The notes under the pieces: generated by a model
The model's database searches: none
Seen by the model: the letters and a program-made list of their open reading frames with translations, nothing else
Told to the model about the DNA's origin: nothing
IMG/VR virus record: IMGVR_UViG_3300033553_000372
Span: 1-64,000 of that record
Length of the DNA: 64,000 nucleotides
DNA from: a virus
Strand: one strand, 5' to 3'
In this document: positions 5,207 to 53,273 of the stretch, in pieces
How the letters are laid out: each line of letters starts with the position of its first letter
Numbering within the stretch: the first letter of the stretch is position 1
Made by a program: the position numbers and the translations under genes

Positions 5207-5700
5207 TGGAACTACCAATATCAGAACTTGAAGTAATACAGACAGCGGCAAATGTTTTCAAGTCTCGTCGACTTAGAATTTTAAAGGCTCTTCAATCAAT
5301 ATTGCAAACAATAACAATTGCAAATGGGTACACGAGAGATATTCAAGATGTTCGAATGGATACTAAATCATGGAGAGATGTTTCAGCTCCTGAGTGTCCA
5401 ATTATATTTTTAGTTGATGATCAGGTTCAAATTGTTCGACACGCTGGTAAAACTAGAGAATATGTGTGGACTATAAGAATGTTCGGCGTTCTAAAGGAAA
5501 CTACATTAGAAGAATTTGAAGAATTTATTTCTGATGTGGAAGAATGTATTGAAGACAACAATCATTTAGCAGGAATTGTTAATAAAGCTGAGATTCAACA
5601 AGTTATAACTGATAATGGTTTATTTGACAATACTAATACAAGATTATTCGAAATTGAATTAAGATGCGAATTCATTAGGTGTCTTGGTAGACCAAGATAA
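5206..5700 (+). CDS. Tail terminator-like protein
   Basis: LQTITIANGYTRD motif and position before the tube gene. Confidence 0.65.
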   Translation: MELPISELEVIQTAANVFKSRRLRILKALQSILQTITIANGYTRDIQDVRMDTKSWRDVSAPECPIIFLVDDQVQIVRHAGKTREYVWTIRMFGVLKETTLEEFEEFISDVEECIEDNNHLAGIVNKAEIQQVITDNGLFDNTNTRLFEIELRCEFIRCLGRPR

Positions 5701-5705
5701 TTGCT

Positions 5706-5713
5706 ATTGTAAA
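5706..5713 (+). promoter_or_regulatory. Candidate late-promoter motif ATTGTAAA
   Basis: Same 8-mer recurs in short intergenic gaps at 15242, 21962 and 60872, and at 32013 overlapping a stop codon. Confidence 0.35.
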
Positions 5714-5761
5714 TACTTGTTGTAAACCCGAGTTGAAAAACTTACAACATAGGAAGAAACA

Positions 5762-6052
5762 ATGTCACAACCTAACGCTTTCATTCGCTCTAAACTTCAC
5801 GACCCAGCTTATTTAGCTAAATTTCTTACAAAAATTGAAGATCTTTACGCTAAAAAATCAAACTCATTCAACGTTTACTTTGGTACACAAAGATACCTTG
5901 GTGAAAAAATGACTTTAGTTGATTTTTCTACTCCTGGTCAAATTTCTTTTACAGTAAATGCTGTAATTTACACTTTTTTAGTAGCAGATATCAGCATCGT
6001 TAAAAAAATACGTGCTCAAAAATATGTGTTTAAGGTAAACGCTTTAACATAA
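5762..6052 (+). CDS. Hypothetical protein
   Basis: 96-aa ORF with AGGA SD, preceded by an 8-bp inverted repeat (5718-5725/5742-5749). Confidence 0.7.
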   Translation: MSQPNAFIRSKLHDPAYLAKFLTKIEDLYAKKSNSFNVYFGTQRYLGEKMTLVDFSTPGQISFTVNAVIYTFLVADISIVKKIRAQKYVFKVNALT

Positions 6053-8273: not shown

Positions 8274-11200
8274 ATGGCAAATAACGAAGTCAAATTAATC
8301 TTAACAGCAGAAGACAATATATCTTCCGCTATTAAAAAAGTAACTGAAGCATTGGGTGAAGGTGGACTTGGCCAAGCTGTAACTGCCGTTTCAACTTCCT
8401 TTCTTGCGTTTAAAAGTATAGCCGAAACAGTTGTTAATGTTATTGGAAAAGTTAACGCTGAGATAATGGAAGGCGTAAATGATGCCAGCAATGCAGAAAA
8501 CGTAAATAAAAGATTGGCTATGTCAATGTCTTTAGTTGGCCAATATACCGATGAAGCATTTATTTCAGTTAATGAGTGGGCTGGAGCATTAGAAGGGGTT
8601 ACTGGAGTTTCAGATGAAACTTTAAGAAGCATGATTGCTTTAGGTATGCAACAAGGATTAAATGTTGAGCAATCAAAAAAAGCTGTTCAGACAGCGATGG
8701 ACTTATCTGCAGCAACTGGCGAAAGTTTAGATGGATCTTTTAGACAGTTAACTATGACATTATCTGGTATTGGTGGAAGATTAGAAAAAACGAATACAGA
8801 GATAGGAAACTTAACAGAGGAAGAACTAAAAAATGGTGGAGCAATAGATCTTCTTTCTAAGAAATATAAAGGCTTTGCTGATAATGCTTCAAATTCATAT
8901 TCTGGTTCTATGATCAGATTCCATACACAAATAGGAAATATTAAAGAAGAATTAGGTAGACTAATTGCTCAGAATCCAATGATCATAGCCGCATTTGATT
9001 CATTATCGAATGTTTTAGCAACAATGTCGTCAAATGCAGCTGAGCTTTCAACTTGGCTTTTAACTAATGGCGATACAATAAAAGATTTAGCTATAGCCTT
9101 TGGATTAGCAACTACAGCTGTAGGTATTTATATCATCGCAGTAAATTGGTTAACCATAGCAACTACAGCTTCTACGGTTGCTGGAATAGCATTAGCTGGA
9201 GTAATGGCAGTAATTACCTCACCAATAACATTAGCGATTGTTGCAATTGCTGGACTAACCGCTGGATTTTATTTTCTAATAAAAAATATCGATTTAGTTG
9301 TTGGTGCTTTAAAGTTTGGTTTAGGTAAAGCATTAGAATGGATTATGGTTCCATTAGGTATGTATATCGAATCTCTTGGGGCTGTAGTAGGTATCTTTAA
9401 TGAAGAATGGGGTAAGTCTTTAAAGTCTGCTTCTGATAAAATTAACCAATTCTCTAAAGATTTACAAAAATCTGGCCAAGCACAAATGGATGCGGCCAAA
9501 GCTGCAAAAGTTCATGGAAAAGAGGTTGATACTAATGCATTAATGATTGCAAGATCTACAGCTGGATTAAATGAACAACTGGCAAAACAAGAACAACAGT
9601 TATCTCAACTAAGACAAGCTTTTGGAAAAGCTTTAGATTCTGGAAAAACAGCATTTAATGCACTAAAAGATTTGGCCCCAAGAATGTCTTTGGAAATGTT
9701 TAAAGAAGATGCTAAAAATTGGACAAAGTCTATTGAGACCTTAAGGAAATCTGCTGAAGGATTAAAAATTAGACTTCAAACTGAAGTTCAAACTGATTCA
9801 GTAAAAGCTGAGCTTGAAAAAGTTAACCAACAATTAATGTACGCTAGCGAATCTGAAAAAGCCTTAAAAATAAAAACTGCTAATGAGATTCGTGGAGCGG
9901 TTACAAAAGAAGAACAAATAAGATTAGATCTAATTAAAAATAGAGAAATTTCTGTACAAGCAGAAATAGCTCAAATGAAATTAGATTCTGCGAAAGGCAT
10001 TAGAGACCAACTTATTCAAATTGATGAACAAAGAATCTTAAAGATGAGAGGTCTTGCTAGTTTAGATTCTCAATCTGGAGTTGATGCTAAAACACAAGCT
10101 ATTTTAAATGTTAATAAAATTGAGCTTGATGCTTTTAAGGCAAATTTAGATGCTCAGAAGCAAATGGCAATATCTATTGAATCTCAAAAGCAAGCTGAAT
10201 TAGCAAATTTAAAAGCTAGTTTAATGTCTGGATCTACAGGCGGTGGAGCACAAGCAAAGCAAGATGCTGAAGTAATTCAAGCACAACAAAAACAAGCGCA
10301 ACTTGCTCAATTAAGAGATCAAGATAAAATTACTGAGCAGCAGTATCAAGAACAAATTACTCAAATTAAAATTGATTCTATTAGTTCAAGAACTATGATG
10401 GAAGCTCAACTTAATGAACAGCGAGCGGCTATTTTAGGAACTTCTCCAGAAGCGCTTGCTCTAAGGCTTCAGCAAGAACAATTACAAAATGAAAGTGAAT
10501 TATTAATTCTTCAAGAAAAATATACTAATGAGCAAATAACTGACGCTGAATTTAAGTTAGCGCAAGAAGCCGCTATGGAAGAGCATACTATTCGTATGAA
10601 TGGTATCAAAGAAGCTCATTTACAAAAAGATTTAGAAAATAATCAGAAGTTAAAGAATCAATGGGGAACAACTTTAGCACAAATTAGACTTGAGCAAGAA
10701 AAGCACGGCAAATTAATGGGTACTGTTAGAGGTATTCAAGCTTCCCAAGAATTTCAAGGATTAAATACTGCACTAAATAATACAGCCAGCTTAATGCAAT
10801 CTTCAAACTCAAGCCAATTTAAAATTGGTCAAGCTGCTGCAATTGCTCAAGCAGCTATAAATATTCCACTATCAGCAATTGCAGCTTATACCTCAATGGC
10901 AAGCATTCCATTTGTTGGTCCAGCCCTTGGTATTGCAGCAGCCGCCGCCGCTGTAGCTGCTGGAGCAATGAATATACAAAAAATTAAATCTCAACGACCT
11001 CCAGGATCTCAAGCTCACGGGGGATTAGATGAAGTTCCCAAATCTTTATCAAATTCAACTTTTTTACTTAAGGGTGGTGAGAGAGTTGTCCAATCTGAAC
11101 AAAATGTTGGCCTAGGACAAGCTATTGATAAGATTAACAATAACCAAACTGGTGGAGGCCATTCAATAACTGTTAATGTGAGCGGATCCGTAGATGGTAG

Positions 11201-30904: not shown

Positions 30905-32019
30905 TGTCACAATTCAACTATAAAGATTTAGAAAATTTACTTCAAGAAGTTGATATAAACTATATTGAAAACAATTCTCACTTTATAATTAAAGAATGTC
31001 CAAACTGTAATGGTGAAGATAAACTATTTATCTCTAAATCTAATTTATTATGGCAATGCTTTAAATGCAAAGATGTTGGTAATCCAGAATTTGGTAAAGG
31101 TAACTTATATTTTTTATTAAAAAACGTTCTTTATTTAGATAATATTCAAATAAAGTCTATTATTTTTGATAATAAGACTATTGAATATGCCCCAGAAGTT
31201 TTAACAATACCAGAAGAAAAAATTAAAGAAGAAAAAGTTTTACATAAAAATATAACTCAATATGAAGTTCCATCTTATTTTTATAAATTAGATTGTTCTG
31301 AAGAATCTATGAAAAAATATCCAGAAGCATATAGATATTTAATTCAAAGAAAAGTGACATCAAAAGATCAGATATTAAAGTTTGATTTAAGATATAATTC
31401 TGCTCAAAAAAGAATAATATTTCCTGCTTATATTGAAAAAGATTTTATAGTTGGAGTTCAAGCTAGAGATATAACTTTGCGATATAAAGAGCACCACCCA
31501 AAATGTCAAAATTTTAAGTGCAATTTATCTAGAAAATATTATTTTAAAAATGAAACAGTAGCCCCAATACATTGTCCAGAGTGTAATGAAAAATTAGTAG
31601 ACTCTTTTTATCCAAAGGCAACTAATTCAAAGGATTTTCCAAAAACAGAATTATTCTTTAATCAACAAAATGTAAACTGGAATTTACCAGTTGTTTTAGT
31701 TGAAGGGCCATTTGATACTATAATGACACCAAATTCATTAGGATTATTAGGAAGAACACTTTCTTCTAATCAATTCAATATCTTGGTTAATAATATAAAA
31801 AGAGATAATAAACTAATTTTATTTTTAGACGGCGACGAAGCTGGGACACTTTCGACCTTAGATGTGTATAGAAAACTATATCCATTTATTAATATAAAAA
31901 TATGTCCTCTTTATAATGACGACGATCCTGGTTCACACTCTTTAGAGCAAAATGTTATAATGTTAAATACTATTTTATCCCCATTTGATTGGGCTATTTC
32001 AAAAAATATCTTATTGTAA
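30904..32019 (+). CDS. dnaG: DNA primase (Zn-binding + TOPRIM)
   Basis: CPNC...CFKC, RIIFP, VEGPFD, DGDEAG, DPG. Confidence 0.9.
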   Translation: MSQFNYKDLENLLQEVDINYIENNSHFIIKECPNCNGEDKLFISKSNLLWQCFKCKDVGNPEFGKGNLYFLLKNVLYLDNIQIKSIIFDNKTIEYAPEVLTIPEEKIKEEKVLHKNITQYEVPSYFYKLDCSEESMKKYPEAYRYLIQRKVTSKDQILKFDLRYNSAQKRIIFPAYIEKDFIVGVQARDITLRYKEHHPKCQNFKCNLSRKYYFKNETVAPIHCPECNEKLVDSFYPKATNSKDFPKTELFFNQQNVNWNLPVVLVEGPFDTIMTPNSLGLLGRTLSSNQFNILVNNIKRDNKLILFLDGDEAGTLSTLDVYRKLYPFINIKICPLYNDDDPGSHSLEQNVIMLNTILSPFDWAISKNILL

Positions 32020-32136
32020 ATAAAATTTATATAAATCAATAGTGTAACAAAAAGTTATATTTTTATAGTATCAAAAGTTAAACAAATGGTTAATGATCCA
32101 TCCACAACAATTTACGCTACTTTTTGGAGGATTTCA

Positions 32137-32766
32137 ATGAAAAATCAAGAGACATATGTCTATTCTGAAGAACTGTTTAATTCATTAAAAGGCATCACTA
32201 TTAAGAACATTCGCAGAGAAATGGGTGGAGTTGATTTAGATCAAGCGGGTTATGATTATGAGGATTTAGAACAAGAATGTAGGATTTGGCTATTGGAAGC
32301 ATGTAAGCAATTTAATCCAGAATGTGGAATGAAATTTCATAACTTTTATTGGATCAAGATTTCTTCTAAATTAGGAAACTATAGAAACAAATTCCAACGT
32401 CAGCAGAAAAAAGGAAGAGTCAGAAACTTTACCTCAATAGGCGAATCTTTTTGGGGACTAGTTGGATTAGAATCTTCCGGTGAAGAATCTTCTGGTCATT
32501 ATAGTTCATATATGGAATCAAATCATAATGATAATAATGATGTTATTGATAGTATAATTGAAGTAAAGAAAATTTTACCATTATTGAATCCAACAGAAAA
32601 GGTTATTTACAATGATTTTTTCATTTTAGGTAAATCTTTACCAGAAATCGTAAGAACTAATGAATTTAAAAAGAATGATAAGCCTCTCAAATATTATCAA
32701 ATTAGAAAAATTATTGACGATTTGAAAGGTATTCATTCAACATTAGTATTAAGTGAGTATACTTAA
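32137..32766 (+). CDS. Sigma70-family-like factor 1
   Basis: Region-2-like EDLEQE..IWLLEA...FNP..GMKF; region-4-like LNPTEK..Y..F..GKSL.EI; GGAGG SD before ATG 32137. Confidence 0.75.
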   Translation: MKNQETYVYSEELFNSLKGITIKNIRREMGGVDLDQAGYDYEDLEQECRIWLLEACKQFNPECGMKFHNFYWIKISSKLGNYRNKFQRQQKKGRVRNFTSIGESFWGLVGLESSGEESSGHYSSYMESNHNDNNDVIDSIIEVKKILPLLNPTEKVIYNDFFILGKSLPEIVRTNEFKKNDKPLKYYQIRKIIDDLKGIHSTLVLSEYT

Positions 32767-32780
32767 TTTAGGAGATACTT

Positions 32781-33212
32781 ATGATTAATCCAGAAAACCA
32801 ATGTGCTCACCTTACGGATAAAGAAACTAAAAGTCTTTCATTAAAAGAAATGTTTGATATGCAATTATCACTTCAACTAAATATGTTTGAAAGAGGCAGA
32901 GGTGTTGATTATGTTAATGGAACATTTAAAGAAAAGGTAGATAATTTAACAATTCAAAAAAGAAACTTAGATACTGAGTTTGTTGAGTTAATTGAAAGAC
33001 TTCCTTGGAAAGAGTGGAAAACATACTCTGCAGAACAATTATCTGGTTGGACTTCAAAAGAACAAGAGCTTGAAACTAAGTTTGAATATGTAGATATGTT
33101 ACATTTCTTCATTAACTTAGGACTATTAATTGGAATTTCAGCTGAAGAAGTTGGTCAATTATATTATTTAAAAAATAAAGAGAATTTCGATAGACAAGAA
33201 AGAGGATATTAA
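32781..33212 (+). CDS. All-alpha dimeric dUTPase/dCTPase (T4 gp56-like family)
   Basis: ELIERLPWKEWK, EYVDMLHF, KNKEN.DRQ..GY motifs. Confidence 0.88.
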   Translation: MINPENQCAHLTDKETKSLSLKEMFDMQLSLQLNMFERGRGVDYVNGTFKEKVDNLTIQKRNLDTEFVELIERLPWKEWKTYSAEQLSGWTSKEQELETKFEYVDMLHFFINLGLLIGISAEEVGQLYYLKNKENFDRQERGY

Positions 33213-33228
33213 ACAATAGGAGTTATAT

Positions 33229-33585
33229 ATGGAAAATGTTAAAAAAGAAAAAGTAGCTAAAAAATCAAGATCAACTTACATTATTCAATGGTGGAACGAA
33301 GGATTTAAAACTAAAGCAGAAATCGCCACAAAACTTCATGAAATTGAAAATAACGGAACACTTGTTCAAAAGAAAACTTCTATTATAAGAGATGAAAAGT
33401 TTTTTGTTGGTGTTGCAAATTGGTATATCACGCAATTAGCAAGAGCTGGAAAGATTGATTATGTTGTTGCTGTTAGAAAACCAAGAGTAAAGAAAGCTGA
33501 AGCGCCAGTTGTTGAGGAAACTATTAAATCTGAAGATGTTACTGTTGTATCTACTTCAGAAGAAACTGAAATTCCTACCTTGTAA
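33229..33585 (+). CDS. Hypothetical protein (possible DNA-binding, acidic tail)
   Basis: 118-aa ORF with AGGAG SD. Confidence 0.7.
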   Translation: MENVKKEKVAKKSRSTYIIQWWNEGFKTKAEIATKLHEIENNGTLVQKKTSIIRDEKFFVGVANWYITQLARAGKIDYVVAVRKPRVKKAEAPVVEETIKSEDVTVVSTSEETEIPTL

Positions 33586-33596
33586 TTTTTGGAGCA

Positions 33597-34097
33597 ATGA
33601 TGATAGTTATTTGGATCGAAGGTGTAGACAATAGCGGAAAATCAACCTTAGCTAAAAAGTTAATAGAAGCCTTTAATTTAGAATACATTCATTGCTCTAA
33701 ACCAAAAACCGATAATCCGTTTTTAGAATATAAAGAAATGATTCAACAAATTAATAAGCCCACAGTATTTGATAGAGGATATTGTGGCGAATTTGTTTAT
33801 TCACAATTATGGAGAGGTGGACTATCTATGAAAATGGACGAGTTCCATCAATTAGATGATTTATGTAAAGAAAGATTTGGATTTAAAACCATTATTATTC
33901 ATGCACAAGCTCCACTACATATCATAAAAGATAGGTGTATTAAAGAAAAAGAAGACTTGCTTCAGTTAGATCAGATTGAAAAATGTCAGCACTTGTTTAC
34001 TGAAATCATGTTTCATACAAAAATGCCAGTATTAGATTACTTTTCTCATACTCAAGAGCCAAAAGATATAATCGAAAAGCTATCTGCATTTCTTTAA
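33597..34097 (+). CDS. dNMP (thymidylate-kinase-like) kinase
   Basis: IEGVDNSGKST P-loop, FDR...EFVY. Confidence 0.88.
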   Translation: MMIVIWIEGVDNSGKSTLAKKLIEAFNLEYIHCSKPKTDNPFLEYKEMIQQINKPTVFDRGYCGEFVYSQLWRGGLSMKMDEFHQLDDLCKERFGFKTIIIHAQAPLHIIKDRCIKEKEDLLQLDQIEKCQHLFTEIMFHTKMPVLDYFSHTQEPKDIIEKLSAFL

Positions 34098-34124
34098 GTA
34101 ATATAAAAATATTAAGGATTATAT

Positions 34125-35072
34125 ATGACAAACTATTCCACTGTGTTTAGAAATTGTGTTACTGAAATTATGAATCATGGCGATGAAGTCTCACCAAGAG
34201 GACAACTAACTAAAGAAAAATTATCTCACACAATTAAAGTTAATCCATTAAAGAGTATTTTTTCATCTCCTATTAGAGAAATAAATCATTCATTCTTATT
34301 TGCTGAAAATTTATGGTACCTTTCTGGAAGAAATTCAATGTTTCTTCTAACTCATTATAATAAAAATTACCATAATTTTGCAGATGATTCTATATTACAA
34401 GGCGCCTATGGCCCAATGATATTAGAGCAAATTAGGTATATTGTTAATACGCTTAAAAAGGACAATGATTCGAGACAAGCTGTAATTTCTTTGTGGAGAC
34501 CTAATCCATCTGAAGCAAAAGATAAACCATGTACGCTCAATTTTCATTTTATGATTCGCAATGGTCAACTTAATCTTCATGTTACTATGAGATCAAATGA
34601 TGCTGTTTGGGGACAAAATTATGATGTTCCATCTTTTAGCTTACTTTTATTAGTGATAGCTGGATCTCTTGCTGTCAAACCAGGACATTTATATTTAACG
34701 GCTAATAGTTTACATATATACGAAAAACACTTTGAATTAGCTAACGAAATAAAAAATTCTCAAGATTCTGATTATAAAGATGTAGAGTTTATTGAAGCAC
34801 CAAATGAAACGCTTGAATGTCAACTATATTATGTTGAACAATGCATCATGGCTCATTATCTTTTAGTTTCAAATAATTTTGATTTATTGAAATTTAATTC
34901 ATTACCAAATTTTTACAAACAATATGTTGGAGCTATGGCTTATCATATTCAACATAAAGTTAAATCAGAAATATTAGTAGAAGATATTATCTATTATATT
35001 AGTGACGCAAATAGTTCTTTAGGTAATATGTTCAATGACAAATATAAATCGTACTTACTCAAATCTAAATAA
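34125..35072 (+). CDS. Thymidylate-synthase homologue, predicted dCMP-modifying (hydroxymethylase/methylase/hydroxylase)
   Basis: AE.LWY, AYG, SRQA, PCT catalytic Cys, MRSND..WG..YD (Asp at the substrate-specificity position), SLHIY. Confidence 0.8.
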   Translation: MTNYSTVFRNCVTEIMNHGDEVSPRGQLTKEKLSHTIKVNPLKSIFSSPIREINHSFLFAENLWYLSGRNSMFLLTHYNKNYHNFADDSILQGAYGPMILEQIRYIVNTLKKDNDSRQAVISLWRPNPSEAKDKPCTLNFHFMIRNGQLNLHVTMRSNDAVWGQNYDVPSFSLLLLVIAGSLAVKPGHLYLTANSLHIYEKHFELANEIKNSQDSDYKDVEFIEAPNETLECQLYYVEQCIMAHYLLVSNNFDLLKFNSLPNFYKQYVGAMAYHIQHKVKSEILVEDIIYYISDANSSLGNMFNDKYKSYLLKSK

Positions 35073-38000
35073 TAAAAGCCATTTTTCTTGTGGAATTGGT
35101 ATTGGTAAACCAATAGAGATTATCAATAAAGCAAAAGAAAAAGGTCTTAGTGGTATAGCTATAACAGACAGGTATACTATCGCCGGACTTCTTGATTTTT
35201 ATTTTCTAGCAAAAAAAGAAAAATTTCCACTTGCTTTAGGTGTAGAACTTTTCTTTTTCGATTATTCTAATAAGATAAATAGAATTATTTTGATTGCTAA
35301 AAATCAAGAAGGATATTTTAATCTTTGTAAATTAGTTTCTTCTTCTCATAATAATATAGATATGCATAAAGTTCCTTGTGTTTCTTTTTACGATCTTAAT
35401 GAATTTAAAGATTCACTTTATTGCTTAATAGACAATCATGATTATCATAAAATATTAGAGCCTATCTTTAAAGAAAATTTAATATATGAAATTATTCTTG
35501 ATAGTGATCATATTGACAAAAATAAATCTATTATAGAAAGCGGTAATAAATTCGTAATAACTTCAGACGCATTTATTCCTGATGAGACATTTAAAATACT
35601 TCAAGACATTATGATAGATAATGCATCATTTAATTCTACAAAAGAAGTTTTCACAGAGTCTAAACATATTTTATCCTTTAATGAATTAGTAGAAAAATGG
35701 AAGAATCATATAGATTACTTTCCAGCCCAAAAGTTTATAGAAGGAATCGACTTATCAAATTTAATATTAAATGAATGCTCAAAAATAGAATTAAAATTTA
35801 ATGATCAAGTTGTAAATTTCCCACACCTCCTTCATCCATTTAATTTAGAAGGACATTCAAAAACAGAATTAGTTTGGAAAATTGCTAAAGAATATGGTAG
35901 ACTTCAAGATAATTCTATCTATAGAGAAAGATTTGAATTTGAAATGGATGCTATTCAGAATAATGGTCGAGTAGATTTAATAGATTATTTTTTAGTTTTA
36001 GAGGATTTGTGTCGCTGGTGTAGAGAAAATGGAGTCATGGTTGGGCCTGGAAGAGGTTCTGGAGCTGGATCATTAGTTAACTATTGTCTTAAAATAACTC
36101 ACCTAGATCCAATAAAATATAATTTGCTGTTTGAAAGATTTATCTCTAAAGGTCGTATTCAAATGGGTACGTTACCAGATATTGATTTAGATTTTTCTCA
36201 CCCAGATAAAGCGAGAGAATATTTAATTGAAAAATATGGATATGATAGAGTCATAAGAATAGGAACTGCTCAAACACTAAAAGCAGCTGGATCAGTTAAA
36301 GATGTAGCTAAGTTTTTAAATCCAGAATTAGATTTTATGACAATTAATAATATCACAAGAACTTTTGGTGTTAAAGACCAAGATGAAACTGAGCTTCAAT
36401 TCTTTGAAAGAAACTGTAATGAAAATGATGTTGCTAAATTATTTTTTGACCAATATCCACAAATCAAAGAAAACGTTGGTAGATTATTAGGATACAATAG
36501 ACAATATGGAACTCATCCCTGTTTTAGTGGCGATTCAACTATACTTACAGATGAAGGTTTTAAATCTTTTAGTGAACTCAATGGTTCAATAAAGAAGGTT
36601 TTAACACCAGATGGTTGGAAAGAAGCTATTTTTTTTACAAATGGATATAAAGATATTAACGTATTTAAATTTAAAAGTAAGCAATTATCTAACAAATCTT
36701 ATTACACAAAAAATACTGAAGATCATTTATTTTTAAATAACAAAAATGAATTTGAGAATTTATCCTCGAATTTTATTCCTTCTCAATTATTAGCTAACGA
36801 TTTCGATAGATTATTTATTCTTTTAGGTTGGTTATGGAATGATGGAACATATTTAAAAAATAAGAAGAGATTTTTTCTTTATCTTACAAAAGAAAAAGAT
36901 GAGGCGATTTTATCATTATTAAATGAGAACGATTACGAGATTACAAATAGATCTGATAGAGTGCTATTATCGCTAGAACTATCTAAACAAATTTTTAATT
37001 TAGGTTATTGCTGTGAATTAGTTAGAAATAAAACTTTTCCTATTAATTGGAATATTTGGACTTTAAAACAAAAGTTCTCTTGGTTAAGGGGTATGTTTAG
37101 TGCCAATGGCTGTGTGATCAGGTCTGCAATAACATTAAAGCTCACATCTATTCCTCTTATACAAGAAATTCATAATTTTTTAAAGGAAAATAAATACGTT
37201 AATGTTAAGCTTGGAATTGGAACTCAAGATTTAAAAGGTTGGAAATCTAGACCAACAGGAAGCTTTTATTTATCATTTTATGGTAATTGTCTTTTTTCTA
37301 AAACGATAGGGTTTTTACAAGAATATAAAAATTTAAAGATTTATAATAAAATATCTTATATAAATAAAGAATTAATAATAGAAAATCAATTAGTATATGA
37401 CTTTACTGTATTAGATGGATCTTGTCCTATTGGTTTAGTTAATGGATTATGGGCTCACAATTGTGGAATAGCTATAACACAAGATCCATTATTTAATTTT
37501 GCTCCACTAAGAAAAGTAAAAGGACAACATGTTTTAGAATTTTCTGCAAAAAGTTGTGAATTATCTGGCATTATTAAATACGATATACTTGGACTAATGA
37601 CATTATTATTTTTACAAAATTGTTGTGAATTAGTAGGCATCGACGATATATATGATATACCACTAGACGATAAAGAAACATTTAAAGGCTTTATTGATGG
37701 ACTAACAGCTGGAACATTTCAGTTTAATTCAGATGTAGCAATAAATATTTTATCTCATCTCCCTTTAGAATTAATGAATCTTGATTTATTGTCAATGACA
37801 ACTTCAGTTGGTAGACCTGGTCCAATGAAGAATCATCAACACGTTGAATTTTACAAGAGAGTTTTAGGAGATAAATTTTCTAGTCCGCCACATCCAGCTT
37901 TAGAAGAAGAATTGAGAGGAACTTATGGTATTATGATTTATCAAGAATCTGTAATGAAGGCTTCACAAATTCTTGGAGGATTCACTTTAGCAGAAGCAGA

Positions 38001-39030
38001 TGATATTAGAAAAGCAATGGGTAAAAAAGATCCAAAAGTTCTCATACCATATAAAGAAAGATTTATTAATCACTGTTTTCTAAAGTATCCAGAAACTAAA
38101 TTTGATTTTTATGATAGTGATGGAAACAAAGTTTCTACTGTTGGAGAACATATATGGGAACTAATGGCTACTTTCTCAGCTTATGGATTCAATAAGTCTC
38201 ATTCAATGTCATATGCATTAATAGGTTACTATTGTCAATATTTAAAAACGCATTATCCAATTCAATGGTGGATCAGTTGTTTTAAATTTGTAGATTCAGA
38301 AAAATTAAGAGAATATTATTCTGTTGCAAAAGAATATTGTGTTGATCCAGATATTAATTTATCTGAGATGGATTACATTATAAATAAAAATAATAAAATT
38401 CAGTTTCCATTTTCTTCTATAAAAGGATTAGGTCCTAAAGCAACAGAAGAAATTTATAAATGTAGACCATTCGTTTCATTTGATGATTTTATAACTAGAG
38501 TAAATAAAACTAGAGTAAATAAAACTGTAGTTCAGCAGCTTATATTCTCAGGTTGCTTTGAATCTCTACATCCAAATCAAACTCAAATACTAATAGATCA
38601 ATATTTTATAAGTAGAAAAGAAAAGACTCCACCTGAATTAACAGCTTTAGATAAATTTCAATTAAAAGAAAAAAGGGTAAATGCGTTATCATTTCTACAA
38701 GATGATCTTTATGATACATATGTCGATAGATATAGCGATACATTTACCACATATGATCAAGCATTGATTGAAAATAAAGCTCGAAAGTTTATTAATATAT
38801 TAGGTACTATAAAGAAAATAACTTTAAAGAAGACTAAAACTAATAAAGCATTTGGAACTGTTGAGGTTGAAAATGCAGGTGAAACTTTAAAACTTAGAAT
38901 ATGGGAAGATGAGATAGATTTCTACAAAGAAACTTTAAAAGATAAAGTAAGAGTTAAAATTAAATGTGGAGTTTCTGGATATAATGGAACAGTTCAATTA
39001 ACATTAGTAAGTATGGAGATATTAAAATGA
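35035..39030 (+). CDS. dnaE: DNA polymerase III alpha subunit (family C) with intein
   Basis: PHP region, GPGRGSGAGSL, FERF, PDIDLD, KYDILGL, YQE, YGFNKSH, C-terminal OB fold. Confidence 0.95.
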   Translation: MTNINRTYSNLNNKSHFSCGIGIGKPIEIINKAKEKGLSGIAITDRYTIAGLLDFYFLAKKEKFPLALGVELFFFDYSNKINRIILIAKNQEGYFNLCKLVSSSHNNIDMHKVPCVSFYDLNEFKDSLYCLIDNHDYHKILEPIFKENLIYEIILDSDHIDKNKSIIESGNKFVITSDAFIPDETFKILQDIMIDNASFNSTKEVFTESKHILSFNELVEKWKNHIDYFPAQKFIEGIDLSNLILNECSKIELKFNDQVVNFPHLLHPFNLEGHSKTELVWKIAKEYGRLQDNSIYRERFEFEMDAIQNNGRVDLIDYFLVLEDLCRWCRENGVMVGPGRGSGAGSLVNYCLKITHLDPIKYNLLFERFISKGRIQMGTLPDIDLDFSHPDKAREYLIEKYGYDRVIRIGTAQTLKAAGSVKDVAKFLNPELDFMTINNITRTFGVKDQDETELQFFERNCNENDVAKLFFDQYPQIKENVGRLLGYNRQYGTHPCFSGDSTILTDEGFKSFSELNGSIKKVLTPDGWKEAIFFTNGYKDINVFKFKSKQLSNKSYYTKNTEDHLFLNNKNEFENLSSNFIPSQLLANDFDRLFILLGWLWNDGTYLKNKKRFFLYLTKEKDEAILSLLNENDYEITNRSDRVLLSLELSKQIFNLGYCCELVRNKTFPINWNIWTLKQKFSWLRGMFSANGCVIRSAITLKLTSIPLIQEIHNFLKENKYVNVKLGIGTQDLKGWKSRPTGSFYLSFYGNCLFSKTIGFLQEYKNLKIYNKISYINKELIIENQLVYDFTVLDGSCPIGLVNGLWAHNCGIAITQDPLFNFAPLRKVKGQHVLEFSAKSCELSGIIKYDILGLMTLLFLQNCCELVGIDDIYDIPLDDKETFKGFIDGLTAGTFQFNSDVAINILSHLPLELMNLDLLSMTTSVGRPGPMKNHQHVEFYKRVLGDKFSSPPHPALEEELRGTYGIMIYQESVMKASQILGGFTLAEADDIRKAMGKKDPKVLIPYKERFINHCFLKYPETKFDFYDSDGNKVSTVGEHIWELMATFSAYGFNKSHSMSYALIGYYCQYLKTHYPIQWWISCFKFVDSEKLREYYSVAKEYCVDPDINLSEMDYIINKNNKIQFPFSSIKGLGPKATEEIYKCRPFVSFDDFITRVNKTRVNKTVVQQLIFSGCFESLHPNQTQILIDQYFISRKEKTPPELTALDKFQLKEKRVNALSFLQDDLYDTYVDRYSDTFTTYDQALIENKARKFINILGTIKKITLKKTKTNKAFGTVEVENAGETLKLRIWEDEIDFYKETLKDKVRVKIKCGVSGYNGTVQLTLVSMEILK
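36520..37461 (+). mobile_element. Intein (314 aa) with LAGLIDADG-type domain in DnaE
   Basis: THP|CFSGDS...TEDH...LLGWLWNDG...LRGMFSANG...VYDFTV...GLWAHN|CG; removal restores the HPCG motif. Confidence 0.93.
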
Positions 39031-39578
39031 GTGTAGAACAAGAATTAATAGATGAAATGAAAAAAATTAATCTTCATTTGAATATGAAGCCTTCAAAAAT
39101 TGAAGGTAATTTTTTAATTGTTGAATGTGATATAGATACTAAAATAGAATTAGAATGGATTGAAAAGATTTCTCTTGAAAAAATTACAAAGAGAAATTCT
39201 AAATTCTATGTTTGGTTTAAAACAACAGATACTACTACAACTATATATTTCGCAACTGAAGTTCCAAAAGATTTCTTTTTAACTCACTGTATCTCAGAAA
39301 CAATTATAGCAACTACATTTCCAGACTTATGTTGGATTCATTCAGATGGAACAACTCCAGAAAATGTTAATGAAATTGCTACAAAGATGAGAGAAGGAAA
39401 AGAGTATAAAACAGGTGATTTAACTTGGCATCTTCCTTCTAAATATTTAGATGATCTTATTGAGATGCTCCACACTATTAATCCAAGCTTTATGTCTGGA
39501 TTAATGCAAGATGGATTACTTTATGGACCATATGTAAAATCAGCAATTAACTTTAACCAAGCTCAAGTCGAGCTATAA
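39027..39578 (+). CDS. Hypothetical protein coupled to dnaE
   Basis: ATGA overlap, GGAG SD, 183 aa. Confidence 0.7.
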   Translation: MSVEQELIDEMKKINLHLNMKPSKIEGNFLIVECDIDTKIELEWIEKISLEKITKRNSKFYVWFKTTDTTTTIYFATEVPKDFFLTHCISETIIATTFPDLCWIHSDGTTPENVNEIATKMREGKEYKTGDLTWHLPSKYLDDLIEMLHTINPSFMSGLMQDGLLYGPYVKSAINFNQAQVEL

Positions 39579-40930: not shown

Positions 40931-42022
40931 ATGGAAGAAAAACCTAACCTATTCGGTACCCTCTTGAAAAAAGAGGGTTTTTATAAAGCATCAACAATAG
41001 TTCAAGACTTAGTTTTAAAAGTTCCACCAAGGGCTCCAGCTTTTTCTTCTTCTCCAAGTTTAGCTTGGATGAGTTCAGTTGGATTTGAAGCCGGAACTAT
41101 GTCGCTTTGGTTTGGACCAAAGTCTTCTGGTAAGACAATGTTAGTTCTAGATCTCATGAAAGATTTTATGAGACAAGAGCTAGATGCTGTAGCTGTTTTT
41201 ATTGACGCTGAAATGTCATTTGAATTTGAAGCAACATTAAGATGGATGGCTGCAAATGGAATTGATCTTGATAGAGTTTTAGTTATAAGAGAAGTCTGTA
41301 TTATGGAAATTTTCGAAACTAAAGTTTTAAAAGAATTAAATCTTGCTATAAAAAATGAAGGAGTTAAGATTTGCTTTATGGCTGCCGACTCAATCCAAGC
41401 AATGTCTGTAATGAAAATTCCAGACACAGAAGCTCAAATTAATAAAGCAGCAAAAGATGGAGCCTTAACAAAAGCCGATTATGGAAAGAGAGCAAACTAC
41501 TTAGCAAAGATATTTCCATTCTTGAGAATGTTTTGTAGAGATAATCGTATCCATTTAGCCTTTATTGGACAAGCAAGATCAGGTGGAGAAGATACGTTTG
41601 GAAATCAAATATGGGAAACAAATGGTGGAGAAGCCCTTTATCATGAAGTTCAATATAGATTTTTAATTACTCCAGCTGGTGAGCCAATATTCCATTCTAC
41701 AGATTTAGATGCAAACGGTAAGCCTGTAAAAATAGGTCACCAAATAAAATGTATCTGCCAAAAGAATAAAATGGGTGAAGGTCAAGATAGAGTCGGTTGG
41801 ATTAATATCGAATATATGAAAGGCGTAGTTAATAAAGAAAATGAACTCGTTGACATTTGTTCTAAATTGTCTATCATTGAAGGTGGTGGAGCTTGGCTTA
41901 ATTACAATGGATCTAAGTACAATGGATCTAAAAAGATGGCTGAAGCTTTAAGAGAAGATCCATTGCTTTATAGAGAACTATTTAACAAAATGATGATGAG
42001 AGCATCTACCGGAGCAACATGA
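40931..42022 (+). CDS. recA: RecA/UvsX recombinase
   Basis: GPKSSGKT, FIDAE, DSI, GGEAL, KNK, GGAW. Confidence 0.92.
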   Translation: MEEKPNLFGTLLKKEGFYKASTIVQDLVLKVPPRAPAFSSSPSLAWMSSVGFEAGTMSLWFGPKSSGKTMLVLDLMKDFMRQELDAVAVFIDAEMSFEFEATLRWMAANGIDLDRVLVIREVCIMEIFETKVLKELNLAIKNEGVKICFMAADSIQAMSVMKIPDTEAQINKAAKDGALTKADYGKRANYLAKIFPFLRMFCRDNRIHLAFIGQARSGGEDTFGNQIWETNGGEALYHEVQYRFLITPAGEPIFHSTDLDANGKPVKIGHQIKCICQKNKMGEGQDRVGWINIEYMKGVVNKENELVDICSKLSIIEGGGAWLNYNGSKYNGSKKMAEALREDPLLYRELFNKMMMRASTGAT

Positions 42023-45000
42023 ATACAAAGTTAATCGTAATTTCAGACGTCCATTTATCATTAAAGAATTTAGACGTATCAATTGAAACATTAACTCAAG
42101 CATTAAAATTATCGAGGGACTTAAAGGTCCCTCTTTTTATTGCTGGAGACCTTAATGATGGGAAGGCCTTAATTAGATCTGAGTGGGCAAATCCACTAAT
42201 AGATTTATTCAATGAATATAATGATGTTTTAATTTATATTCTTATTGGAAACCATGATCTTCAAAATAAAAATGCTTCCTCTAATTCACTTTATTTTCTT
42301 AAAGCTTTATCAAATGTTTGCTTAATAGACAAACACATTACAAAAAATATTAATGGAATAGATTTTGGAATTATTCCATATCAAGTTTCTACAGTTGAAT
42401 TGCAAGATATTATCTTACAAATGAAAGATAGGGATGTTAAGAGCCTATTGATCCACCAAGGTATTTGGGGCGCATATATGGGCGATTATATAGTAGATGA
42501 ATCATCTATATCTCCTGATGCCTTTAAAGATTTTGATTTTGTAGGCTCTGGACATTATCATAGATCACAAAGGCCAGCTGATAATATTCTTTATTGGGGT
42601 TCGCCATTCACAACAAATTTTTCAGAAGCTAATGAAGAGAAGTTTATATGGAAAGTTGAATTATTAAATGATAAAATTAATACAGTTCCAGTAATGACAA
42701 ATGTTAGAAGACACAAGCAAATAGTATTTGAAGATTCAATTACTCAAGTTGAAAAGCTTCCAGCAAATTCATTAGTCAAAGTTCTATTGAAAGGAACAAA
42801 AGAATTTACTCAATCAGTTACGGTAGAATATTTAAAAGAATTATTAGGCGTAAACTCAGTTACCATCTCGACAGAGATAACAAAACAATCAGAACAAAGA
42901 GTCTCATCTGAGATATTAAATAACCCAATTAAAGTTATTGAGTTCTATTTGGCTAACTGTAAAACTACTTATGATAAATTAGAATTAGAGAAATATTTTA
43001 AATCTGCTGTAGGCGATCTCATTAATAATTTCTCTCAATCTTCTTCTAAACAATTTAGGCTTAAGAAAGCTAATTGGAATAATTTTCTTTCATTTAAAGA
43101 AGAATCGTTTGAATATTCACCAATGGGATTAACATTAATTGAAGGCTACGATGAAGACCTTGGCGTTAATACTGGATCTGGAAAGTCAAGCTTTTTAGAT
43201 GTTCCATGTTATGGAATGTACGGTGAGACTTCAAAATCTCTTAAGGCTGATGAGGTTATCAATAGACAAGTTGGAAGAGATTTATTTGTTGAATTATTTT
43301 TAGAATCTAATGGCGAAGAATATATTATTCGTAGATATAGAAAACATAGATTATTTGAAAACGATTTACATATGGTTATGCCAAATGGACAAGAGTTAAG
43401 AGGAAAAGATAATAGAGAAACTCAAAAACTTATTGAACAAGAATTAGGAAAGTCTTTAGATATTTTTCTTAAATCAAGTTACTTCACTCAATTTGGACCA
43501 ATGGATAGATTTTTATCTGCATCTGATACAGAAAAGAAACAATTGATTGCAGAAATTACTGACCTATCTATATATGATACTATATTAGATCGTGTTAAAG
43601 ATCTTCTTAAGGAAGATCAGAAGTCTCTTGATTCTGCTGAAACCCAACTAAAACAAGATTCTTATGTAGTATCTCATTTAAATGTTACGATTCAAGATAA
43701 TACGAATAAATCTATTAATTGGAATATAGCCCATAATAATAGAATAATTGAAACTGGAATTTTAGTTGATAAAGAAAATATTAGAATAGCTAACGATAAA
43801 ATTGAATTTAATAATAAATCAAATGAGTGGTTAAATCAAAGTTCTCAATCAATTAAGAACCTTAAATCTCAAGAAAAAGGTTTTGAACAACTTAGATTAG
43901 AGATGATTGATAACTTCAATACAGATCTATTAATGTTTAATGCTAACCAACAAGGTAAAATTGAATCTATTAATAATGAGATTGAAGAGTTAAGAAATAA
44001 GATAACTCCACTTCAAGATAAACATGATGAGTTATTAAAAACTCTTCCTGATATGTTGACATTAGAAAATGAGAGAAAAGAATTATTAACTAAAAAAGAA
44101 ACTATTGCTCAATTAAAAATAAAAGAGCAAAACATTTCAAATGAACTTTTCTCTAATGATAAACAAATAGAAGCTCTTCATAATAAGATTGCCGCTGATA
44201 TAAAAAAGATTAATGGAGGTGATTCATCTGAATGTCCACATTGTTATCAAGAGCTAGATGCAAACTGTATTCATAAAAATATTGAGGTATTTCAACATGA
44301 TATAGATAAGTTGGATAATCTTTCAAATGATTTAAGAAAAAAATCAGATGCTATTAAATTCTACATCGATCAGACTCCACAAGTATTAGAGAGACTTCAG
44401 CAAATAGAAAAAAGTGGATATGAAAAAAAGAATATTGAATTAGAACTTGAAACTATATTGAGAACAATAAAGTCTATTGGTGAGACTATTAAATTCAAGA
44501 ACGATATGTTAGATCAAATCAATAGTTCAGTGAGTCCTGCTTTAGCTCAGATAGAAAATAAAAAGAAAGAAGCTAATCCATACACACAGTTAATTATAAA
44601 TGAAGAGAGCAAAACTAATCCATATCTTGAATATAGAGATATAGAGAATAAATATATTTTATCATTAGAAAATCTTAATAAAGAGATTAATCCATACCTC
44701 TCAATACTAGAACAAAATGGATTTGATATTCAACAAGCTCAATTTGCAGAACTTAAAGGCCTTGAGACTCTAGATTATTGGGTAACCAAAGTTGATTATG
44801 GAACTTGGTGGAAACAAGCCCTACATGTTTATATTAAATCTTATTTAATGGACTCTTGTTTTGAGCAAATTAATATTATAGCAAATGAGCACCTTAATAC
44901 ATTATTTGACGGCGTATTAAAAATTAATATTTCAGCCACAACTGAAGCAAAGTCTGACATAAAAGAAAAGATTTCTGTTCAAATTATAAACAATGGAGAT

Positions 45001-45297
45001 GAATGTTCTTATAATTCATTATCAGGCGGTGAGAGAGCTAGAATATGCTTAGCTTTAAATCTTTCATTAGCTAAAGTAATTGCTAAAAGTTCAGGAAATA
45101 AATTGAATTGGATAGCTTTAGATGAGATTCTTAATGGCTTAGATGAAGTTGGTAAAGCTCAAACTATGAAGTTCTTAAAGGAACTTGAATCAGAATATGA
45201 AACTATATTTGTGATTGATCATGATGAATCATTTAAGTCTATGTTTACGAATTCTATATCGATAGTTAAGAAAAGCAAAGTGTCAACGATTGTATAG
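42019..45297 (+). CDS. Fused SbcD(Mre11)-SbcC(Rad50) nuclease-ATPase
   Basis: SDVH, GDLND, GNHD, GHYH phosphoesterase motifs; NFLSF, GSGKS, CPHC hook, LSGGE, LDE, IDH, all in one ORF. Confidence 0.92.
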   Translation: MNTKLIVISDVHLSLKNLDVSIETLTQALKLSRDLKVPLFIAGDLNDGKALIRSEWANPLIDLFNEYNDVLIYILIGNHDLQNKNASSNSLYFLKALSNVCLIDKHITKNINGIDFGIIPYQVSTVELQDIILQMKDRDVKSLLIHQGIWGAYMGDYIVDESSISPDAFKDFDFVGSGHYHRSQRPADNILYWGSPFTTNFSEANEEKFIWKVELLNDKINTVPVMTNVRRHKQIVFEDSITQVEKLPANSLVKVLLKGTKEFTQSVTVEYLKELLGVNSVTISTEITKQSEQRVSSEILNNPIKVIEFYLANCKTTYDKLELEKYFKSAVGDLINNFSQSSSKQFRLKKANWNNFLSFKEESFEYSPMGLTLIEGYDEDLGVNTGSGKSSFLDVPCYGMYGETSKSLKADEVINRQVGRDLFVELFLESNGEEYIIRRYRKHRLFENDLHMVMPNGQELRGKDNRETQKLIEQELGKSLDIFLKSSYFTQFGPMDRFLSASDTEKKQLIAEITDLSIYDTILDRVKDLLKEDQKSLDSAETQLKQDSYVVSHLNVTIQDNTNKSINWNIAHNNRIIETGILVDKENIRIANDKIEFNNKSNEWLNQSSQSIKNLKSQEKGFEQLRLEMIDNFNTDLLMFNANQQGKIESINNEIEELRNKITPLQDKHDELLKTLPDMLTLENERKELLTKKETIAQLKIKEQNISNELFSNDKQIEALHNKIAADIKKINGGDSSECPHCYQELDANCIHKNIEVFQHDIDKLDNLSNDLRKKSDAIKFYIDQTPQVLERLQQIEKSGYEKKNIELELETILRTIKSIGETIKFKNDMLDQINSSVSPALAQIENKKKEANPYTQLIINEESKTNPYLEYRDIENKYILSLENLNKEINPYLSILEQNGFDIQQAQFAELKGLETLDYWVTKVDYGTWWKQALHVYIKSYLMDSCFEQINIIANEHLNTLFDGVLKINISATTEAKSDIKEKISVQIINNGDECSYNSLSGGERARICLALNLSLAKVIAKSSGNKLNWIALDEILNGLDEVGKAQTMKFLKELESEYETIFVIDHDESFKSMFTNSISIVKKSKVSTIV

Positions 45298-45682: not shown

Positions 45683-45712
45683 AAATGCCACTCTTTTTGG
45701 GTGGCATTTTTA
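45683..45712 (+). terminator. Rho-independent terminator
   Basis: AAATGCCACTC-ttttt-GGGTGGCATTT followed by T. Confidence 0.8.
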
Positions 45713-48576: not shown

Positions 48577-49164
48577 ATGGCTAAGATGGCTAGAAATAAG
48601 ACAAGGAATGCTTTACTAGCTTTATCAGAGGCAGAGTCTAATAAAATTGGATTAGAAGTTGAAAGATTAATTCATAATGAAATGTCGTTTATTGTTAATA
48701 AATATATTTATAAGTATAAAAACGCAGCAGCCGATACTTTTGGTTGGGACTCAGACGATTTACTTCAACATATTCGTATACTTATGTGGAGAGGTGTAGC
48801 CACTTTCAATCCAGAAAGAAAATTGAAAATGACTACATATTTATCATCGATTCTTTATTATCAAATGGGTAATCTCTCAAAAAAGATTTCATCAAAGAAA
48901 AACTCTCAATCAAAACTTTATTGCCCAGAAGTATTTTTTGACTCAGATGAAATGATAGACTTTACAACAGCAGAAGATTGGTTATTATATGCTAGAAAAT
49001 TTGAGCATCTAATTGGTAAACTAACTGATTTAGAAACTAAAGTATTAGTGCAACACTTAATATATGGACATACACTATCTGATATGGAAACAAAACTGTC
49101 AGTAAAAAAAATAGACCTAATTAAATCAATTAAAGTTATTAAAATAAAAATGGAGAGCATTTAA
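48577..49164 (+). CDS. Sigma70-family-like factor 2
   Basis: DDLLQ...MWRG..TFNPER..KMTTY region 2; LTDLE..VL...I.G.TL.D region 4. Confidence 0.75.
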   Translation: MAKMARNKTRNALLALSEAESNKIGLEVERLIHNEMSFIVNKYIYKYKNAAADTFGWDSDDLLQHIRILMWRGVATFNPERKLKMTTYLSSILYYQMGNLSKKISSKKNSQSKLYCPEVFFDSDEMIDFTTAEDWLLYARKFEHLIGKLTDLETKVLVQHLIYGHTLSDMETKLSVKKIDLIKSIKVIKIKMESI

Positions 49165-52634: not shown

Positions 52635-52673
52635 TTAGTAGTATAACCCCAATACAAAATATTGGAGAGTTAT

Positions 52674-53273
52674 ATGGATTATATCGAGTTTTTTAAAGGT
52701 AAAAAAATTGTAGCAGTTGATGCTGAATGTTTAAGAGATGTAAAGCCTCCTTTTTCTTTTCAAGCTTCAGAGTATTTAGGTAACGCAGTTACGTGTTCAT
52801 TAACTAATGATGGTGAATATCGTGATTGGGTAGAATCTAGAACAATGACTAACTTCTTTTCATACTTAAATTCATTTGATTATGTTGTAGGATATAACAC
52901 TCTTAATTTTGATTATCCATTATGGGGTGGTGAAGTTAAAACTCCAGAACATCTTGCAGCTAGAAAATTATTTCAAACAGCTTTAAAAGGAAAGACAATT
53001 GATCTTTGTTTAGACTTTCATAAAGCAGTTGGCCAAAGAGTAGGTCTTAATTCTGTATCTGTTCCAACGCTTGGTGATATGAAAGAAATGGAAGGTGGAT
53101 TTGCGCCTCAATTGTGGCGTGAAGGAAAATGTATGGAAGTAATCCAATATTGTAGGGGTGATGTGAGAAGAACAATGGACCTTTTTATGTTAGTAGTTAA
53201 TGGTCAAAAATTAAAACATAAGAAAAAAGATGGAAACGTTATAGAGTTTTCTTCTAATATTGAGATTAGATAA
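52674..53273 (+). CDS. DnaQ/RNase H-like 3'-5' exonuclease
   Basis: VDAE (ExoI), GYN..NFD (ExoII), YC..DV (ExoIII). Confidence 0.8.
   Translation: MDYIEFFKGKKIVAVDAECLRDVKPPFSFQASEYLGNAVTCSLTNDGEYRDWVESRTMTNFFSYLNSFDYVVGYNTLNFDYPLWGGEVKTPEHLAARKLFQTALKGKTIDLCLDFHKAVGQRVGLNSVSVPTLGDMKEMEGGFAPQLWREGKCMEVIQYCRGDVRRTMDLFMLVVNGQKLKHKKKDGNVIEFSSNIEIR

Follow-up and report, generated by a model that had tools for sequence, protein, structure and literature searches.

Gene content of the locus

We analysed a block of five genes at 32781-39030 in the phage IMGVR_UViG_3300033553_000372, a 77,040-bp IMG/VR virus record which has direct terminal repeats and is rated complete. The window is the whole stretch of DNA that was taken from this record, bases 1-64000; features beyond it are given in genome positions. 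DNA of this phage is present in two cold-spring metagenome samples, both from one study, and no RNA sample is listed as containing it. The block consists of a pyrophosphatase gene, an open reading frame (ORF) named ORF118, a kinase gene resembling thymidylate kinase (Tmk), a homologue of the thymidylate synthase (TS) gene and the gene of a DnaE-type polymerase. Its genes are spaced by 11-27 nt or overlap, with a 38-nt overlap between the last two, and the ORFs were found exactly where the original prediction had placed them. The genes are as follows.

32781-33212, + strand: putative T4 gp56-type dCTP/dUTP pyrophosphatase (dimeric all-alpha dUTPase family), 143 aa, from PF08761, phrog_173 and homology to gp56
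33229-33585, + strand: ORF118, a small fast-evolving protein, 118 aa, no family match
33597-34097, + strand: P-loop nucleoside-monophosphate kinase, thymidylate-kinase-like, 166 aa, phrog_761 (E 1e-17)
34125-35072, + strand: candidate TS-superfamily dCMP hydroxymethylase (5-hydroxymethyl-dCMP synthase), 315 aa, from PF00303 and signature residues
35035-39030, + strand: DnaE-type (family C) DNA polymerase, 1331 aa including an intein, phrog_405 (E 1e-199)

Active-site signature of the TS homologue

The TS homologue at 34125-35072 (called P0001 below) is the only one in the genome. The Pfam model Thymidylat_synt (PF00303) matches its residues 8-213 with 97.2 bits (cut-off 24.3), and the protein is laid out as a catalytic core of approximately residues 1-215, followed by a C-terminal extension of about 100 aa that is specific to its clade. 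Its best score with the ThyA equivalogs of NCBIfam is 76 bits, far below the cut-off of 327, and among proteins of solved structure the CMP hydroxymethylase MilA is most closely related to it (E 2e-21). The closest TS homologues (P0002-P0010) are 57-78% identical to it. P0001 was aligned with E. coli ThyA, T4 gp42, RB69 gp48, SPO1 gp29 and 119 database homologues, and E. coli numbering is used for the alignment positions.

Several published rules connect positions of this fold with substrate and product. The change N177D selects dCMP or cytosine (PMC13326640, PMC8670742), and L143D/E gives a hydroxymethyl rather than a methyl product (PMC13326640, PMC6400193), the hydroxymethylase signature being an Asp three residues ahead of the catalytic Cys (PMC6400193). 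The change D169N is the mark of flavin-dependent 5-hydroxy-dCMP synthases (PMC13326640). Enzymes acting on deoxyribose substrates have R126 and S167, while ribo-specific ones have Lys and Ala (PMC5175136). Positions 147 and 177 also track metagenomic phage contigs with modified cytosine (PMC8670742).

In P0001 the canonical N177, L143 and H147 of ThyA are replaced by Asp, Asp and Thr, respectively. The Asp at position 177 had already been pointed out in the original prediction and is confirmed here: the motif MRSNDAVWGQNYDVPSF was found in P0001, and its Asp (D167) aligns without gaps with E. coli N177, T4 gp42 D179 and the corresponding Asp of MilA. P0001 equals T4 gp42 at all 10 of the 10 positions compared (D143, C146, T147, M165, R166, S167, N168, D169, G173 and D177). 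The catalytic Cys (C146 in E. coli, C148 in T4) is Cys136 of P0001 and is invariant across 20 clade members, and the water-activation Asp (L143 in E. coli, D145 in T4) is Asp133, within D-K-P-C. The deoxyribose-type S167 and R126 are Ser157 and Arg117 of P0001; the other signature residues are E58, Y94, H207 and Y209. We conclude that P0001 carries the signature of a dCMP hydroxymethylase and that its clade, an environmental one, would be separate from the T-even enzymes. The predicted product is narrowed to 5-hydroxymethyl-dCMP, because a 5-hydroxycytosine (5hoC) enzyme would require D169N and a methylase would have retained L143.

The 5hoC enzymes deserve a closer comparison. RB69 gp48, DLP3 gp80 and HY126 (PMC13326640) resemble P0001 in the TS fold, Asp177, an acidic residue at 143 and the kinase and glycosyltransferase partners, and RB69 gp48 also shares Thr147. 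If P0001 were a flavin-dependent 5-hydroxy-dCMP synthase of this type, the DNA would contain glycosylated 5hoC; glycosyl derivatives of 5hoC have been found in diverse phages (PMC13326640), and this genome has genes for a glycosyltransferase and a sugar epimerase. We regard this as very unlikely. The flavin-binding enzymes have D169N, whereas P0001 keeps Asp at this position (its Asp159, aligned with an Asn of RB69 gp48), and RB69 gp48 also departs from the pattern of P0001 and T4 at 143 (Glu), 168 and 173. In addition, the transferase encoded here is homologous to the T4 enzyme specific for 5-hydroxymethylcytosine (5hmC), and not to the arabinosyltransferases described for RB69.

In the maximum-likelihood tree, P0001 lies inside a clade of 27 proteins with 100% support, every member of which has Asp177, while all Asn177 homologues make up one separate clade together with SPO1 gp29. 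This bears on a route of the SPO1 type, in which dCMP deaminase would provide dUMP for a dUMP hydroxymethylase and thymine would be replaced by 5-hydroxymethyluracil or a derivative. Several of the nearest named matches to P0001 (34-42% identity) are isolates annotated as 'dUMP hydroxymethylase', and both a dCMP deaminase and an enzyme of the dUTPase family are encoded. Nevertheless, SPO1 gp29, a verified dUMP hydroxymethylase, departs from P0001 at 147, 165 and 177: gp29 and its clade have N177, N/C147 and I/V/N165, but P0001 and the 27-member clade have D177, T147 and M165. The 'dUMP' enzymes of the isolates PW916 and AXL3 likewise have Asp177, so that their names are probably mis-annotations. 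We therefore give the SPO1-type route very little credence.

The TS homologues of Pseudoxanthomonas phage PW916 (L010) and Stenotrophomonas phage AXL3 (L013) have D143 and T147 besides D177, and adjoin genes of an NTP pyrophosphohydrolase, a methyltransferase and a dCMP deaminase. They are annotated as dUMP hydroxymethyltransferase or thymidylate synthase, annotations which probably name the wrong substrate.

Glycosyltransferase and linked cassettes

It was stated in the original prediction that no glycosyltransferase could be recognised in the window. This is true of the window itself; a GalE gene and a glucosyltransferase homologue were found just outside it, at 65940-68092. The features found there are the following.

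65940-66932 (genome): GalE, adjoining the glucosyltransferase homologue, with a score over the TIGR01179 cut-off
66929-68092 (genome): homologue of T4 beta-glucosyltransferase (BGT, GT63), PDB 1bgt (E 4.7e-17)
70150-70638 (genome): dCMP deaminase

The BGT homologue begins about 2.9 kb past the window end, about 32 kb downstream of the TS gene. It was aligned over both domains of 1bgt (residues 61-366 against 50-329), from which its donor and acceptor are only predicted. In related loci, the transferase gene is found much closer to the TS gene. The record IMGVR_UViG_3300024262_004767 (L015) has the row gp56-like gene, ORF, kinase, BGT, TS and DnaE, in which the BGT homologue (8853-9965) lies inside the cassette between the kinase and the TS gene. 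Kinase, TS, BGT and deaminase genes are contiguous in L076, and the TS gene is followed by the BGT gene in L094. The metagenome scan of linked loci did not recover the contigs of P0002-P0010.

Another relative, IMGVR_UViG_3300045825_000308 (L098), has the same backbone as the window, and its TS slot (5116-5997) holds a ThyA-like enzyme (263 bits with PF00303) with L143, H147 and D177. From these residues the enzyme is predicted to be a dCMP methylase making 5-methylcytosine (5mC). A BGT homologue was not detected in the available 63 kb of L098, a record that is only 56% complete. This syntenic slot, together with Asp177, which directs the enzyme to dCMP, speaks for P0001 as an Xp12-type dCMP methyltransferase as well, with 5mC in the DNA. 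But P0001 has Asp instead of Leu at 143 and Thr instead of His at 147, which is the hydroxymethylase pattern (PMC6400193, PMC13326640). Moreover, 5mC would offer the BGT homologue no acceptor, and BGT is physically linked to the P0001 clade in L015, L076 and L094. A methyltransferase is accordingly a highly improbable identity for P0001.

Pyrophosphatase and kinase

The pyrophosphatase matches dUTPase_2 (PF08761) with 31.5 bits (cut-off 22.9) and phrog_173 with E 8e-21. It is homologous to T4 gp56 over the full length (residues 6-143 against 5-171, with 36% identity and E 4e-24), and nearly all of the 1311 phage records that match it are gene 56 of Straboviridae; part of the gene matches at the DNA level too. 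The bona fide dimeric dUTPase of C. jejuni (1w2y) is much more distant (E 3.5e-4). By this homology, dCTP and dUTP are its putative substrates.

For the kinase, matches to Thymidylate_kin and to AAA P-loop models were below the cut-off, and a weak similarity to the Tmk-like protein RB69p045 was found (E 1e-6). A homologue of this kinase lies directly upstream of an Asp177 TS gene in about 24 unrelated viral or metagenome loci. Since the pairing recurs in this way, the kinase and the TS homologue constitute a common module.

Proposed pathway

We consider it likely that the block encodes those steps of a T4-type cytosine-replacement pathway which precede replication, and that the remaining steps would be encoded elsewhere in the 77-kb genome. 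The gp56-like pyrophosphatase would hydrolyse dCTP (and dUTP) to the monophosphate, which would clear the dCTP pool and feed dCMP forward. Cys136 of P0001 would then attack C6 of dCMP while Asp167 reads the cytosine base; a methylene group would be taken from methylene-tetrahydrofolate, and water activated by Asp133 would replace the hydride transfer to yield 5-hydroxymethyl-dCMP (5hm-dCMP). The Tmk-like kinase would convert this to the diphosphate and the host NDP kinase to 5hm-dCTP, which the phage DnaE would incorporate. After replication, the BGT homologue would put a hexose on the hydroxymethyl group, with the UDP-sugar provided by the adjacent GalE, and the dCMP deaminase would shunt some dCMP to dUMP for the host thymidylate synthase. 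Thus the core of the original prediction, cytosine replacement in a phage with DnaE, is borne out by the gp56 homology and the full signature, while the options of 5mC and 5hoC that it had left open are not favoured by D143 and D169. Each activity, and the composition of the DNA, is predicted from gene content, order, homologies and active-site signatures, all of which were observed.

Several points weigh against this pathway. The first is that the specificity of every enzyme is read from signature residues. In P0001, the Ser/Thr-x-Tyr element of the published dCMP hydroxymethylase signature (Ser94 and Tyr96 in T4) is unmatched: the sequence reads Gly93-Ala94-Tyr95, with the Tyr conserved but no Ser. 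Gly-Ala-Tyr is also present in 88 of the 108 Asp177 homologues, and the element also varies in verified hydroxymethylases other than that of T4 (A-P-Y in SPO1 gp29, T-A-Y in MilA). Comparison by alignment and tree had been suggested in the original prediction; the alignment gave the match with the T4 gp42 signature, but in the tree P0001 is not demonstrably a sister of gp42, since the long branches of T4, RB69 and E. coli could not be placed. Enzymes of the gp56 family hydrolyse dUTP too, so depletion of dCTP is a putative effect. The kinase, which had been likened to T4 gp1, is not homologous to it (BLASTP E 0.47, P-loop only); it would be a functional analogue of gp1, and its acceptance of 5hm-dCMP is an assumption given that it is not gp1-like. 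Lastly, the search for other group-transfer enzymes covered part of the genome ORFs.

A more modest explanation is that these genes only tune nucleotide pools by salvage and dUTP sanitation, or that modification is partial, without genome-wide substitution. Its support comes from the palindromes of the 77,040-bp genome. GATC is not avoided (257 observed, 268 expected), as the original prediction had said, but GAATTC, which it had also put among the palindromes not avoided, is depleted approximately two-fold (12 observed, 26-28 expected; observed/expected ratio (O/E) 0.43). CATG (O/E 0.63), CTAG (0.70), GGATCC (0.43) and GAGCTC (0.22) are also depleted relative to the Markov expectation, while AGCT, TCGA and all palindromes of A and T only are at expectation. 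Such mild depletion would be needless in a fully protected genome. We found the palindrome statistics uninformative, because they do not discriminate between the readings, and the argument for protection drawn from them in the original prediction carries no weight. On the other hand, a hydroxymethylase signature, a gp56 homologue and a homologue of a DNA glucosyltransferase have no known role outside DNA modification, and their combination recurs as a linked cassette. Pool tuning or partial modification is hence judged unlikely.

The DnaE-type polymerase and its intein

The polymerase has the domains PHP, DNA_pol3_alpha (NTPase), finger and HHH_6 (HhH) in this order, and this domain content makes it a true member of family C. 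Among isolated phages, Cellulophaga phage phiST is the nearest by DnaE, with a split polymerase that is 33% identical. The original prediction had described the cytosine pathway as 'wired' to this polymerase. We found gene adjacency only. The overlap with the TS gene is genuine, as the PHP domain starts near residue 8 and ATG 35035 is the sole start codon ahead of it, but this overlap is not conserved: a gap of 62 nt separates the homologues in L015. The position next to dnaE is best seen as a lineage-specific slot for nucleotide-pool genes, and functional coupling is only hypothetical. The N-terminal PHP motif (35035-35100) looks degenerate, reading L-N-N-K-S-H-F-S where His-x-His is usual, and the PHP metal site may be inactive.

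An intein interrupts the polymerase after the NTPase domain.

36520-37461, + strand: intein, 314 aa, DnaE residues 496-809, inserted in a conserved motif between GTHP and CG

Its first residue is Cys, and His-Asn followed by Cys is found at the C-terminal junction; two LAGLIDADG-like motifs are located at residues 596 and 684. At a threshold of E 0.01, none of the intein models in Pfam gave a match. The intein is precisely absent from the DnaE of L015. Near-full-length matches to the DnaE were obtained in L097 (75%) and in L098 (53%, an ORF of 1329 aa), which suggests that these two polymerases also contain the intein.

Comparison with known systems

The T4 pathway is the closest parallel, with homologues of gp56, gp42 (same active-site signature), b-gt and the cd dCMP deaminase and with the same pathway logic. 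It differs in its gp1-like kinase and family B replicase, where a Tmk-like kinase and a family C DnaE are found here. P0001 further differs from gp42 in belonging to a separate environmental clade, in the C-terminal extension and in lacking Ser94. GalE is coupled to the transferase here, and the pool genes are clustered beside the polymerase, while they are scattered in T4. MilA, the CMP 5-hydroxymethylase of Streptomyces rimofaciens (PDB 5jnh, 5b6d), shares Asp143, Asp177 and hydroxymethylase chemistry, but has Ala and Lys where P0001 has Ser167 and Arg126, and serves in antibiotic biosynthesis instead of DNA modification. The MetaGPA contigs (PMC8670742) show TS changes at 147 and 177, both of which are present in P0001; that study characterised a 5hmC carbamoyltransferase, while the follow-on enzyme here is a BGT homologue.

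The cbastvirus phiST is alike in having DnaE with a base-replacement cassette directly upstream of the polymerase genes, and this cassette contains a dUTPase_2/MazG-type pyrophosphatase and a P-loop ATPase. It differs in lacking a TS homologue and the intein and in having its DnaE encoded by two separate genes. In phiST, guanine is completely replaced by 7-deazaguanine via FolE, QueD, QueE and DpdA3 (PMC10516641), and so base replacement in a DnaE phage is not unprecedented.

The principle (TS with N177D, kinase, dCTPase and glycosyltransferase) is long established as an anti-restriction strategy, and earlier work has shown such modules to be common among metagenomic phages (PMC8670742, PMC13326640). 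What the present locus adds is breadth and not a new mechanism: the T4-type glycosyl-5hmC strategy would be extended to a phage from cold springs, as yet uncultured, whose replicase is of family C (DnaE). In addition, the syntenic relatives with a hydroxymethylase-type or a methylase-type TS in one slot provide a natural comparison for the signature rules at 143, 147, 169 and 177, and the same comparison bears on whether DnaE polymerases accept 5hm-dCTP or 5m-dCTP.

ORF118 and ORF183

Two ORFs, 33229-33585 (ORF118) and 39027-39578 (ORF183), had been put forward as candidates for accessory or hypermodification steps. The second follows the DnaE gene.

39027-39578, + strand: ORF183, conserved phage protein between DnaE and an SSB-like gene, 183 aa, family of about 80 clusters

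ORF118 had no match in Pfam, PHROG or NCBIfam, and no homologue in a word-indexed search of 5.8 billion proteins; its Atlas scores of 0.82 or lower are in the chance range. It has positional homologues in L098 (28% identity, E 2e-8) and L015 (E 1e-5), and is thus present whatever the TS type. The ORF183 family comprises 82 representative clusters, all stand-alone proteins of about 170-200 aa with conserved Asp, Cys and Arg positions, and ORF183 is syntenic after DnaE in L015, L097 and L098.

Structure prediction with AlphaFold and comparison with Foldseek had been suggested for both ORFs in the original prediction; both were modelled, and the model of ORF183 was compared. The single-sequence AlphaFold2 model of ORF118 was poor, with a predicted local distance difference test score (pLDDT) of 45. 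The model of ORF183 was usable (pLDDT 75, predicted template modelling score 0.77), but Foldseek against PDB returned nothing at E 0.001 or better, Atlas was uninformative, and the best match from the wide VIA-align search (3nlc_A, Z 8.1) is within the typical chance range. The family profile had no match among PDB sequences. A Pfam scan of 47 members gave single-member matches only, including PF21688 (E 0.0055), and there is a weak resemblance to the C-terminal domain of VP0956-type FAD-dependent proteins (3nlc, PF21688).

Both ORFs are kept in the methylase-type L098, in the available 63 kb of which BGT is absent, so they are not tied to hydroxymethyl chemistry and make poor hypermodification candidates. 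They look like lineage-specific replication or pool factors rather than hypermodification enzymes. A tentative extension, to which we assign a small chance, is that the slot from the sigma-like gene to dnaE is a modular base-replacement cassette, in which ORF118, ORF183 or both adapt the family C replisome or the nucleotide supply to non-canonical dNTPs. The gp56-like pyrophosphatase, ORF118, the Tmk-like kinase and ORF183 after DnaE may be its constant chassis, and the TS may be the exchangeable part, of the hydroxymethylase type here and in L015 and of the ThyA-like N177D methylase type in L098. In phiST, which is more distant, this place is taken by a 7-deazaguanine cassette.

Gene neighbourhood

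All long ORFs across 29.5-45.7 kb are on the + strand. The row starts with a DnaB-like helicase, a primase-like ORF and the sigma-like ORF, followed by the five-gene block, and continues with ORF183, an SSB-like ORF, ORF145, a RecA/UvsX-like ORF and a fused SbcD-SbcC-like ORF. Two of these neighbours are described further.

32086-32766, + strand: sigma-70 region-2-like ORF, 226 aa, first of the packed block; Pfam Sigma70_r2 E 0.0035 (below cut-off), phrog_351 E 3.8e-6
42019-45297, + strand: single 1092-aa ORF with an N-terminal Mre11/SbcD-type metallophosphatase and a C-terminal SbcC/Rad50 Walker B region

The sigma-like ORF is syntenic in L015 and L098, and the ORF at 42019-45297 appears to be a fused SbcCD. 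An operon is plausible from the close gene packing and a terminator-like hairpin downstream of the block at 45683-45709. A promoter-like site precedes the sigma-like ORF at 31932-31961, where an 11/12 match concerns the consensus only. The promoter scan found fewer sigma-70-like sites than in shuffled sequences, and therefore the operon boundaries are putative. No tRNA genes were found in the window.

A second sigma-70 region-2-like ORF is located at 48577-49164, and a faint 3'-5' exonuclease-like ORF (PF10108, E 9e-5) at 52662-53273. In L015, the match to a superfamily 2 (SF2) helicase is split into 851-1621 and 2479-3117, which suggests an insertion in this gene.

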